This document shows positions 18,893-20,442 of a stretch of 64,000 nt of DNA, one piece after another. Origin of the DNA: Escherichia coli O127:H6 str. E2348/69 (GTDB lineage Bacteria > Pseudomonadota > Gammaproteobacteria > Enterobacterales > Enterobacteriaceae). The notes below the pieces were generated by a model. It worked only from the letters and a program-made list of their open reading frames with translations, had not been told where the DNA came from and did no database searches. Numbering within the stretch: position 1 is the first letter of the stretch; each line of letters opens with the position of its first letter. A program made the translations under genes and the position numbers. The stretch lies in NCBI RefSeq assembly GCF_000026545.1, contig NC_011601.1. One strand, 5' to 3'.

Positions 18893-18911
18893 CTGTCTCT
18901 TATACACAAAT
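18893..18911 (+). repeat. IS left terminal inverted repeat (Tn5 outside-end/mosaic-end-like)
   Basis: CTGTCTCTTATACACAAAT; compare remembered Tn5 OE CTGACTCTTATACACAAGT and mosaic end CTGTCTCTTATACACATCT. Confidence 0.8.
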
Positions 18912-19057
18912 CCCCACCCGGGGATTTGTGATGTCTGTCAGTCTGCTTTAGGGGGACTCTTTCCATCCGGTAGTTTCCTTCCTCCCCGGCAGCGATTTTT
19001 TGAACTTTTTCCTCACCTGTTGATCTTCTCTTATATTTCATTTCCTTCGGGTCTGTT

Positions 19058-20431
19058 ATGGTACTTTCTGATTGTTATTCATGGGCTAACGAGCAGTTTG
19101 GACATGCCCGTCTCGGTGATCCGCGTCGTACACGACGCCTTGTGTCACTGGCCTCTTCTCTCGCTCAGCATGCAGGTCTTTCTATTGTGAAATCATCCCA
19201 GTCCACTGCTCAGGTTGAAGGTGCGTACCGCCTGATACGTAACCCGTCTGTGTCCCCGCAAGCCATTGCCGAAGCCGGATTTACCGCCACTGTAAGGGCA
19301 TGTGAGGCTCATCCGCTGCTCCTCGCGCTGGAAGACACCACCACCATTAACTTCAGTCACAGTACGGCATCTGATGACCTGGGGAATACCACCACTAACC
19401 CGAAGACGCGCGGGCTGCTGGCTCACTCTGTCCTGATGTACGCCCCCGACAGCGCCCTGCCAGTCGGTCTTATCGAACAGCAGCGCTGGAGTCGTGCCAC
19501 GGACACCTACGGTGTTAAGCACCAGCGAAAAGAACGTCCCTATGAAGAAAAAGAAAGTTACCGCTGGCAGCAGGCTTCGGAGCGCATGGCCGAATGGCTG
19601 GGGGAGATACAGAAACGGGTAATCACTGTCTGTGACCGGGAAGCGGATATCTGGCATTACCTGCATTATAAAGTCAGCCACGGGCAGCGCTTCGTGGTGC
19701 GTGCAGCACAGAATCGCCGGCTGGAAGAAGCACCCGGCAAGCTCTTCGAACTGCCGGAAGTCCTGGCAACCGCGGGAAGCCACACGCTGAATGTGATGCA
19801 AAAAGGCGGGCGGGCAGCCCGCCAGGCCCGGATGTTCATCAGTTACAGCGAAGTCAGCATAAAAAATCCCGACAACAGCGGCCAGGCGCTCCCGCTCACG
19901 TATGTCTGTTGCCGGGAGCAGGCAGAGGACGGCGCCTGCTGGCATCTGCTGACGTCAGAAAAAGTGGCGAGTGCCGCCGATGCGCGACGTATCGTCAGCC
20001 ATTACGAGCGACGCTGGCTGATAGAGGAATACCACAAGGCGTGGAAAAGTGGTGGTACATGTGTGGAATCGCTGCGAATGCAGACCCGGGATAACCTCGA
20101 GCGCATGGTGGTTATCAAGGCGTTTATCGCGGTGCGGGTGCTGGGCCTGCGGCAGGGCGGTATCAGTGAAGAAACACAAAATGACAGCTGTGAGAAAATA
20201 CTGACGCCGACAGAGTGGAAACTGCTGTGGGTTAAGCTGGAAGGAAAACCGCTTCCGTCACAGATGCCGACACTGAAATGGGCCTGTCTGAAACTGGCGA
20301 AACTGGGGCGATGGCATGACAGCAAACGCACCGGTCGCCCCGGTTGGGTAGTCATGTGGGATGGCTGGTTCAGACTTCAGGATATGGTTGAGGGTTACCT
20401 GGTGATGAAGTCTCTTGATCAGGAGATCTGA
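19058..20431 (+). CDS. IS4-family (Tn5 Tnp-like) DDE transposase
   Basis: 457-aa ORF; motifs LGDPRRTRRL, LEDTTT, VCDREADIW and YERRWLIEEYHKAWKSG align with the Tn5 transposase DDE/YREK regions, but overall sequence is clearly diverged from Tn5 Tnp. Confidence 0.9.
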   Translation: MVLSDCYSWANEQFGHARLGDPRRTRRLVSLASSLAQHAGLSIVKSSQSTAQVEGAYRLIRNPSVSPQAIAEAGFTATVRACEAHPLLLALEDTTTINFSHSTASDDLGNTTTNPKTRGLLAHSVLMYAPDSALPVGLIEQQRWSRATDTYGVKHQRKERPYEEKESYRWQQASERMAEWLGEIQKRVITVCDREADIWHYLHYKVSHGQRFVVRAAQNRRLEEAPGKLFELPEVLATAGSHTLNVMQKGGRAARQARMFISYSEVSIKNPDNSGQALPLTYVCCREQAEDGACWHLLTSEKVASAADARRIVSHYERRWLIEEYHKAWKSGGTCVESLRMQTRDNLERMVVIKAFIAVRVLGLRQGGISEETQNDSCEKILTPTEWKLLWVKLEGKPLPSQMPTLKWACLKLAKLGRWHDSKRTGRPGWVVMWDGWFRLQDMVEGYLVMKSLDQEI

Positions 20432-20442
20432 TCAAGAGACAG
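20424..20442 (-). repeat. IS right terminal inverted repeat (IS50 inside-end-like)
   Basis: Reverse complement reads CTGTCTCTTGATCAGATCT, identical to the IS50 inside end as I remember it; contains GATC sites; overlaps the transposase stop codon. Confidence 0.8.

Follow-up and report, generated by a model that had tools for sequence, protein, structure and literature searches.

Elements of the IS50 subgroup of the IS4 family range from 1350 to 1550 bp, have termini that start with 5'-CT and follow the pattern CW------Y---CA-A--W-, and are flanked by direct repeats of 8-9 bp (De Palmenaer 2008, PMC2266710 Table 1). The transposases of the IS4 family carry the signature Y-(2)-R-(3)-E-(6)-K (PMC2266710). 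Tn5 duplicates 9 bp of its target, for which a weak consensus is attributed to Goryshin 1998 in the passage of PMC1525189 that cites that work. Insertion specificity has been described in other members of the family: IS231A is presented as the classic example where PMC2266710 cites it, and every copy of ISRm22 is located in an extragenic palindrome that separates convergent genes (PMC1525189).

The window analysed here, a stretch of 64,000 nt, contains at positions 18893-20442 a 1550-bp element that was identified as a copy of ISEc13. It is located in the chromosome of the EPEC O127:H6 strain E2348/69, with ybaY and a gene of the MGMT family as neighbours. In length it is similar to IS50, which measures about 1.5 kb, and it falls inside the range of the subgroup. 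The features of the element and of its duplicated target are:

18885-18892, no strand: left copy of the 8-bp target-site duplication, CCGCCCGG
18893-18911, plus strand: left 19-bp terminal repeat, CTGTCTCTTATACACAAAT, in which positions of the Tn5 outside and inside ends are naturally mixed
19022-19025, no strand: GATC (Dam) site within the upstream region of tnp
19058-20431, plus strand: tnp, encoding a 457-aa DDE transposase of the IS4 family (IS50 subgroup), assigned from the ORF, profiles and alignment
20424-20442, minus strand: right 19-bp terminal repeat with two GATC sites, the same sequence as the IS50 inside end
20443-20450, no strand: right copy of the 8-bp target-site duplication, CCGCCCGG

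The DNA of the element was 100% identical to the E2348/69 copies, for which the RefSeq label is 'IS4-like element ISEc13 family transposase', and its protein matched exactly CAS07558.1 and other GenBank entries described as 'transposase of ISEc13 [E. coli O127:H6]'. The name used here was assigned from these labels and from the original E2348/69 annotation. Between 27 and 30 matching places were detected per E2348/69 chromosome record, and full copies were present in 873 of 5,426 complete E. coli genomes, the carriers comprising hundreds of wild strains of human, animal and water origin. A lookup with a 98% variant of the protein returned only the same ybaY site. The copy in the window is intact and probably active; recent activity is indicated by the many matching places in the chromosome and by the identical proteins encoded at four different sites of one assembly. 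In the literature the name ISEc13 was found merely listed, several mobilome surveys included, and the supplements of the IS4 review (PMC2266710) do not mention it.

When the ends were compared with those of Tn5, the left one matched the outside end and the mosaic end at 17/19 positions each (both sequences verified from PMC3347997 Table 1), whereas the right one, with CTGTCTCTTGATCAGATCT as the reverse complement of 20424-20442, was identical to the IS50 inside end over 19/19 positions and retained its Dam sites. The likeness of both ends had been noted in the first-pass annotation and is borne out here; the inside-end comparison was checked against an actual element of IS50 type, that of C. 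freundii p6_B, the right end of which reads AGATCTGATCAAGAGACAG, and a second time on the PaphII-proximal sequence of Tn5 in PMC9241598. The stop codon of tnp lies within the right end, as in IS50. By eye, both ends fit the pattern of the subgroup (C1, T2, T9, C13, A14, A16 and T19), and a single chance match to the terminal pattern, with 1 mismatch, was found elsewhere in the window.

The transposase is encoded by a single ORF without frameshift, a trait of the IS4 family, and aligned with the Tn5 transposase structures in the PDB over residues 6-453 (E=7e-83). The triad D93, D193 and E323 aligned with D97, D188 and E326 of Tn5, the YREK signature was found as Y316, R319, E323 and K330, and the equivalents of W298, R210, R26, R27, R30 and R62 are all conserved. 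The Tn5-type N-terminal DNA-binding and C-terminal dimerisation domains typical of the IS50 subgroup are present, as detected by Pfam with Tnp_DNA_bind PF14706 (E=2.8e-19) and Dimer_Tnp_Tn5 PF02281 (E=9.7e-5) together with DDE_Tnp_1, and the NCBIfam model NF033590 transpos_IS4_3 scored 511.6 bits (cut-off 160). The identity to an IS50-type transposase was only 38.8-38.9% by tblastn and 41-42% in a global alignment, in agreement with the earlier statement that the enzyme keeps the DDE and YREK signatures and differs from Tn5 Tnp over much of its length. The position of M56, the start of the Tn5 inhibitor, is occupied in ISEc13 by Q52, with no Met there. No sigma-70 promoter was found upstream of tnp with a simple consensus scan; by analogy with IS50, the GATC site at 19022-19025 could have a regulatory role.

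A diverged enzyme beside conserved ends is less odd than it sounds, because the N-terminal end-binding domain is the best-conserved part of the protein (54% identity vs. 37% in the catalytic core) and the same termini were found again in relatives with 52% protein identity. From the similarity of the ends, ISEc13 may cross-react with Tn5-based tools.

The repeat flanking the element is exactly 8 bp long. In strain Z0117EC0005 the ybaY/MGMT site is unoccupied and reads GTTAACCCTCT CCGCCCGG AGAGGGTTAG, with the 8-mer present once; therefore, this is a true 8-bp duplication and not a mutated 9-bp one. Over 25 independent insertions the duplication was of 8 bp in 17 cases, 9 bp in seven and 7 bp in one, lengths consistent with the 8-9 bp of the subgroup. 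As insertions at a shared site could have a common descent, these were counted as separate events only if their orientation or repeat length differed. The sole 7-bp case (L173) is in an A-run, where an assembly error is possible. Lookups with partial proteins (P0006, P0004) returned mostly contig-end fragments with one flank only.

Other accounts of the element were weighed against these data. The first-pass annotation had proposed a distinct member of the IS50 group; this, with the Tn5-type ends and the much-diverged transposase, holds, but the element itself is already known and catalogued, and the claim of novelty is not supported. A new, unnamed element had nothing in its favour beyond the first-pass annotation and is highly improbable, since the name ISEc13 has stood in GenBank since the E2348/69 genome and is also in RefSeq and in mobilome surveys; what turned up is the known, named IS that the annotation itself had foreseen as the alternative, in a subgroup with published repeats of 8-9 bp. 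The Tn5-like ends, and the Nextera adapter remnants with a similar 17-mer that pollute many public assemblies, could suggest instead that the element is simply IS50/Tn5, a Tn5 derivative from the laboratory or an artefact of sequencing adapters. Such an origin is hardly conceivable for a whole 1550-bp element with a target duplication, a transposase at 39-42% identity to the IS50-type protein, ends that depart from the mosaic end at positions 17-18, and carriage by hundreds of wild strains. An original 9-bp duplication, as in Tn5, with one copy later mutated would agree with the single mismatch between the 9-mers at the two junctions, which was noted earlier and holds when the count takes in the final base of the element. 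However, the empty site with its single CCGCCCGG leaves no room for the ninth base, identical proteins at four distinct sites of one E2348/69 assembly (LT903847.1) all had clean 8-bp repeats, and 8 bp was the majority length among the 25 events, so this explanation deserves next to no credence.

The sequence around the duplication is palindromic, and its arms hold the half-sites of a motif, CCYCY-N8/9-RGRGG:

18877-18884, no strand: left arm of the target palindrome, AACCCTCT, which holds the CCYCY half-site
20451-20458, no strand: right arm of the target palindrome, AGAGGGTT, which holds the RGRGG half-site

This motif was the setting of every ISEc13 insertion examined (25 insertions). Among their half-sites, C at -4 and -2 plus Y at -3 were present in 50/50, with ~6.25 bits per half-site. 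Almost all the sites were short, GC-rich palindromes, for the most part resembling terminators and located between convergent genes; BoxC/TMECO repeats were among them. In the native window the core motif had a frequency of 0.35-0.38 per kb, whereas the strict motif was found once in 62 kb, at the occupied site, and a matrix built without the ybaY site ranked the ybaY position and register first of 124,804 (13.5 bits, the next at 10.7). The same palindrome had been entered independently in both orientations at two sites (L011/L019 and L015/L036), and at two sites (L017/L168 and L005/L170) 8-bp and 9-bp duplications were detected in different strains. Thus, the target choice of ISEc13 is unlike the near-random choice of Tn5. 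A strict dependence of 8 vs. 9 bp on the parity of the palindrome was rejected, as both lengths occur at each of two sites and not all the 8-bp sites are centred. The ybaY hairpin is not a canonical intrinsic terminator either, having no T-run on either strand, and is therefore called terminator-like. No paper describing the CCYCY rule was found in the literature searched, and for a terminator or palindrome target of IS50-type elements the literature gave only REP-targeting and bridge-RNA elements.

All the sites analysed are natural, post-selection copies, and the purging of genic insertions contributes to their intergenic bias. This feature of the data, together with the location of most sites between convergent genes, where insertions are neutral, would also be expected if insertion were broad and only the copies in harmless intergenic palindromes persisted. 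Survivorship of this kind is nevertheless quite unlikely to be the explanation: selection could not make C invariant at -4 and -2 (50/50 half-sites) with single-base register, nor produce both orientations or 8/9-bp repeats in the same loop, and the motif is absent from most intergenic DNA, its strict form being present once in 62 kb. A recognition of DNA structure (an extruded hairpin, a cruciform or a terminator), with CCYCY only mirroring the hairpins of E. coli, has more in its favour, as the used sites fold better than other core-motif sites (MFE -15.1 vs. -7.6, p=3e-7) and marine relatives are inserted in terminator hairpins with other stems (GGGAG..CTCCC, GGCC..GGC, GCCGCT..). It is nevertheless rather unlikely, because some of the sites (L016, L008 and L015) have almost no stem past CCC/GGG, the duplication in BoxC/TMECO is ~3.5 nt off the hairpin dyad and in register with CCCCT/AGGG, and the mirror motif GRG-N10-CYC, equally common in the window (27 occurrences), is never used. 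Taken jointly, the data are best explained by an intact, probably active ISEc13 of the IS4 family, IS50 subgroup, with a Tn5-like mechanism and palindrome targeting, to which we assign a probability of roughly 0.92.

Besides the palindrome of the target, the element has a hairpin of its own at each end:

18905-18930, plus strand: left end-proximal hairpin, CACAAATCCCC-ACCC-GGGGATTTGTG, overlapping end positions 13-19
20410-20440, no strand: right-end hairpin, GTCTCTTGATCAG-GAGAT-CTGATCAAGAGAC, in which end positions 3-15 pair with an inverted copy located internally

The left hairpin (MFE -22.1, z -4.9) is kept in an ISEc13 variant with a different loop. It is likely the remnant of a read-through terminator; it has no clean T-run in ISEc13, so that a terminator function is doubtful. 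The right-end hairpin (MFE -21.6, z -4.3) overlaps the final codons of tnp and is kept in a Vibrio relative with a compensatory G/C swap (z -6.1). Probably, the end hairpins shield tnp from read-through once the host hairpin has been split.

By homology to Tn5, a transposase dimer would contact both 19-bp ends through its N-terminal domain, and the element would be excised by the DDE/YREK hairpin cut-and-paste route. The ends would then be joined to the target with an 8-bp stagger, or 9 bp in about a quarter of the events. In the insertions analysed, the joint of each end lies at a constant distance from its CCYCY half-site, which places the element in palindromes of the form CCYCY-N8/9-RGRGG; the half-site spacing appears to decide between a duplication of 8 and one of 9 bp. 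As the targets are mostly terminator-like hairpins between convergent genes plus BoxC/TMECO repeats, the element is kept out of genes. The odds are about even that ISEc13, together with its marine relatives, makes up a clade of natural, site-selecting Tn5-type transposons, in which ISEc13 reads two CCYCY half-sites with their spacing setting 8 or 9 bp, is steered into terminator-like palindromes and BoxC/TMECO, and replaces the split hairpin with its own end hairpins.

As first put forward, the finding changes nothing, ISEc13 being a catalogued IS with an 8-bp repeat in the published range of its subgroup. Its practical side is that, in E2348/69 and many further strains of E. coli, there are dozens of ends that either equal the Tn5 inside end or deviate from the outside/mosaic end by two bases, and possible mobilisation is worth keeping in mind when Tn5 transposase is used in vivo in such strains; the same caution applies to the filtering of reads for the mosaic-end adapter sequence. 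The strong target rule shows that the Tn5 fold can be highly site-selective, which is of interest to Tn5 engineers, and the targeting may account for part of the instability reported at BoxC/TMECO loci. If undescribed, the site-selecting clade proposed above would provide a natural way to Tn5-like enzymes that select their targets and would be a cause of variation at those loci.

Compared with the described systems, ISEc13 shares with IS50/Tn5 its domain architecture, catalytic residues and ends, and differs from it in that its duplication is mainly of 8 bp (9 bp in Tn5 and in an IS50-type element, L025), in the strong hairpins within both ends, absent from the IS50-type element (z -0.9), in its strict target and in its location outside any composite transposon. 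A likeness was also found in IS50-subgroup elements of marine Gammaproteobacteria (V. owensii p1, V. hepatarius, Photobacterium, Psychrosphaera and an Aeromonas MAG); a contig scan for the 17-base terminus yielded at least about 20 real, usable elements, and among the matches listed most were remnants of Nextera adapters located at the ends of contigs from Actinobacteria and MAGs. These relatives have the left terminus CTGTCTCTTATACACAA(A/G)TCCC, a hairpin directly internal to the left end and another at the right end that is based on the terminus, and are inserted in hairpins with flanking A-runs and T-runs, the protein of the V. owensii element being 52% identical to that of ISEc13. In contrast to ISEc13, they have a complete terminator, with T7-8, as left hairpin, their target stems have other sequences, and their duplications were of 8, 9 and 10 bp (single examples). 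IS231A resembles ISEc13 in having a palindromic target of GC half-sites at a set spacing, but its consensus, in work by Hallet from 1994, is reportedly GGG(N)5CCC, of opposite polarity to the CCC..GGG of ISEc13. It also belongs to another subgroup, with ends starting 5'-CAT and duplications of 10-12 bp (PMC2266710 Table 1). ISRm22 shares the insertion into palindromes between convergent genes, although it is a member of the IS4Sa subgroup and its target is a specific REP family and not a short pair of half-sites, whereas the REP-targeting elements of IS110 type employ an unrelated, RNA-guided chemistry.

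The element at window 18893-20442 is 1550 bp long, starts with CTGTCTCTTATACACAAAT, finishes with AGATCTGATCAAGAGACAG, encloses a single long ORF (19058-20431, 457 aa) and carries on both flanks an exact 8-bp direct repeat, CCGCCCGG. The terminal pattern was not found elsewhere in the 64-kb window, except for one chance match with 1 mismatch. When 5,426 complete E. coli genomes were searched by megablast, the EPEC O127:H6 E2348/69 chromosome matched with 100% identity; its copy, annotated as 'IS4-like element ISEc13 family transposase', has ybaY on one side and a gene of the MGMT family on the other, in a placement identical to that in the window, and GenBank names the exact protein 'transposase of ISEc13 [Escherichia coli O127:H6]'. 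Therefore, the distinct IS50-group member proposed in the first-pass annotation is an already known, catalogued insertion sequence, ISEc13. Each of three listed E2348/69 chromosome records holds 27-30 matching places, copies spanning at least 80% of the element are present in 873 of the genomes searched, and 1,176 matching places in the same search are plasmid-borne. In the same strain, maa (maltose O-acetyltransferase; window ~23842-24394, positions 10950-11502 of locus L001) is a frameshifted pseudogene according to RefSeq.

The ybaY/MGMT interval is empty in 5,394 of the 5,424 genomes that matched a joined-flank query, and in strain Z0117EC0005 it reads GTTAACCCTCT CCGCCCGG AGAGGGTTAG, with a single 8-mer; thus, the insertion duplicated exactly 8 bp and not 9 bp, in agreement with the 8-bp repeat first read from the flanks. 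Further copies were located through annotated records and exact-protein look-ups and their junctions were read, an event being counted only if it differed in site, orientation or repeat length (n=25). Duplications of 8 bp predominated (17 events), followed by 9 bp (7 events) and 7 bp (1 doubtful event, in an A-run). In the E2348/69 assembly LT903847.1, 4/4 distinct insertion sites seen have 8-bp repeats. As direct repeats of 8-9 bp are also given for the IS50 subgroup in a review of the IS4 family (PMC2266710 Table 1), an 8-bp repeat is ordinary for ISEc13, though unlike Tn5.

The right end is the IS50 inside end at 19/19 positions. An identical 19-mer forms the right end of an IS50-type element adjoining blaCTX-M-25 on the C. 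freundii plasmid p6_B (left end CTGACTCTTATACACAAAT, 9-bp duplication), and the match to the inside end also holds for the PaphII-proximal sequence of Tn5 given in PMC9241598. The left end matches both the outside end and the mosaic end (PMC3347997 Table 1) at 17/19 positions. Its base at position 4 is that of the inside end, whereas positions 10, 11, 12, 15 and 17 agree with the outside end, so that the left end is a natural mosaic of inside and outside ends. In some copies (L016, L018, L021) the right end reads ...CAGGAAATCTGATCAAGAGACAG, altered at position 18 of the inside-end-type terminus; the change AGATCT to AGATTT removes one of two terminal Dam sites and is synonymous in the transposase gene (tnp).

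The 457-aa protein scored 511.6 bits against NCBIfam NF033590 (cut-off 160), matched Tn5 transposase structures across almost its full length (E=7e-83) and contains three Pfam domains:

Residues 8-65: Tn5-type DNA-binding domain
Residues 174-357: DDE domain
Residues 377-452: Tn5 dimerisation domain

Its identity to IS50-type transposase is 38.8-38.9% by tblastn and 41-42% by global alignment; it is highest in the N-terminal end-binding region (54%), lower in the C-terminal part (43%) and lowest in the catalytic core (37%). The catalytic triad D93, D193 and E323 aligns with Tn5 D97, D188 and E326, the YREK signature is Y316, R319, E323 and K330, and the equivalents of R26, R27, R30, R62, R210, W298, W323 and K330 are also retained. 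Q52 stands opposite Tn5 M56, so that the Tn5 inhibitor start is missing at that position. The initial description of Tn5-type ends on a diverged enzyme with intact DDE and YREK signatures was therefore borne out. In a sub-variant from E. fergusonii plasmids and some E. coli, the left end, CTGTCTCTTATACACAAGT, is the outside end altered at position 4 only. The pairing of a diverged enzyme with conserved ends is therefore a clade-wide property, and it accompanies a well-conserved end-binding domain. On the antisense strand of tnp (window 19561-19978, minus), 5 terminator-like hairpin plus T-run sites were counted versus 1.6 expected from shuffles, for example GGCGGGCTGCCCGCCCGCC followed by TTTTT (19823-19805, minus).

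Every insertion (25 events, 50 half-sites) lies in one type of sequence, CCYCY-N8/9-RGRGG. The flanks compared were those of the window copy and of other events among loci L003-L046 and L167-L174:

Window 18877-18892: target flank before the element
Window 20443-20458: target flank after the element

When half-sites were aligned at the junction, positions -4 and -2 were C and position -3 was a pyrimidine in 50/50, position -5 was C in 36/50 and position -1 was a pyrimidine in 46/50, an information content of ~6.25 bits per half-site. After removal of the element, the native window contains 22 occurrences of the loose core CYC-N10-GRG and a single strict motif, which is the occupied site. When the remaining 23 events were used to derive a weight matrix, the ybaY position with its 8-bp register ranked first (13.5 bits, next best 10.7) over 124,804 position-register combinations in the window. 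In the 9-bp events each half-site holds its register to the nearer junction, which suggests that each end would be positioned by its own half-site.

Some sites were struck repeatedly. Opposite orientations were found in different strains at mog/satP and at a prophage site (L011/L019, L015/L036), the repeat at agp/yccJ is 9 bp long in one strain but 8 bp in another (L017/L168), and the tRNA-Pro/eptB site has both lengths (L005/L170). These independent hits on the same palindromes, in both orientations or with two repeat lengths, argue for mechanistic targeting and against the view that harmless insertions simply survived.

The majority of sites are palindromes that can form hairpins and are located between convergent genes (ybaY/MGMT, agp/yccJ, symE/DUF1127, yehA/rcnB, aaeR/tldD, mog/satP), and used sites fold better than the window's other core-motif sites (mean MFE -15.1 vs. 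-7.6 kcal/mol, p=3e-7), as would suit a purely structural recognition of the target. Such recognition is nevertheless unlikely, as certain used sites have almost no stem past CCC/GGG, and the mirror palindrome GRG-N10-CYC, equally frequent in the window (27 occurrences), is never used. Moreover, two sites (L021/L022 in CP148541.1, and L174) are BoxC/TMECO intrastrand-triplex repeats (CCCTCGCCCCTTTGGGGAGAGGGTTAGGG...; compared with PMC4666352 Table 1), in which the duplication lies ~3.5 nt off the hairpin dyad, yet in register with CCCCT and AGGG. Therefore, recognition of sequence half-sites is favoured, with the palindromic context helping. According to the TMECO paper (PMC4666352), its authors found no association between the motif and transposons. 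No description of target choice by ISEc13 was found in the literature searched. Of all that is described here, only the target rule and the end hairpins may be new.

A 98%-identical variant, WP_001357015.1 (L042-L045, L169), also occupies precisely this ybaY/MGMT site, flanked by the identical 8-bp repeat, and is the sole copy in many strains; it could represent either an insertion fixed long ago or a reused hot spot homogenised later. Copies with swapped or absent flanking repeats (the pairs L021/L022 in CP148541.1 and L030/L031, and L004 in pMAR2) show that recombination between ISEc13 copies has caused inversions or other rearrangements.

Similar termini were seen elsewhere. A repeated element of Pluralibacter gergoviae (L105-L108), known here from one end, has the same 17-base terminus and an unrelated interior without tnp in the first 300 bp, and its insertion point directly follows the BoxC-type palindrome CCCTCTCCC(N)GGG; an ISEc13-like enzyme may have mobilised it as a MITE or as cargo. 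In Photobacterium sanguinicancri (L122, 1344-1391), a 48-bp mini-element of two back-to-back outside-end-like termini (CTGTCTCTTATACACAA...TTGTGTATAAGAGACAG) adjoins terminator-like sequence. Among the listed matches to CTGTCTCTTATACACAA (L047-L126), most are remnants of Nextera adapters in which one base is wrong. They stand where contigs of Actinobacteria and MAG assemblies end, with CTGACGCTGCCGACGA or CCGAGCCCACGAGAC next to them, and are contamination of public assemblies.

ISEc13 has a strong hairpin immediately inside each of its ends:

Window 18905-18930 (end positions 13-38): left-end hairpin, CACAAATCCCC-ACCC-GGGGATTTGTG, MFE -22.1, z -4.9
Window 20410-20440: right-end hairpin, positions 3-15 plus an internal inverted copy, MFE -21.6, z -4.3

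The internal inverted copy of the right hairpin overlaps the final tnp codons. Both hairpins are kept at their positions, with a different loop, in the E. fergusonii-type variant (L026, 422-474), and also in a 52%-identical element of V. owensii plasmid p1 (L041, 395-447 and 1853-1899), where the right stem differs by a compensatory G/C swap and the left hairpin, with T8 after it, is a textbook terminator. The left-end hairpin with its T-run is also found in relatives from Photobacterium, Psychrosphaera, V. hepatarius, an Aeromonas MAG and a soil MAG, and in the marine ones the run is T7-8 and the terminator complete; these further relatives are inserted in A-run/stem/loop/T-run hairpins, with repeats of 8, 9 or 10 bp. 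From these arrangements we infer that the clade splits host hairpins and carries its own, which would limit read-through into tnp. The IS50-type element, in contrast to ISEc13, has no comparable structure at its ends (z -0.9).

Tn5 transposase binds its ends as a dimer, cleaves through a hairpin intermediate and integrates the excised element. By homology, a dimer of the ISEc13 enzyme would bind both 19-bp ends, cleavage would proceed via a DNA hairpin intermediate with the DDE, YREK and W298-type residues, and the excised element would then be integrated. The GATC sites, two in the inside-end-type terminus and one upstream of tnp, suggest a putative Dam control as in IS50, and cross-action of the Tn5 transposase on ISEc13 ends, or the reverse, is plausible.
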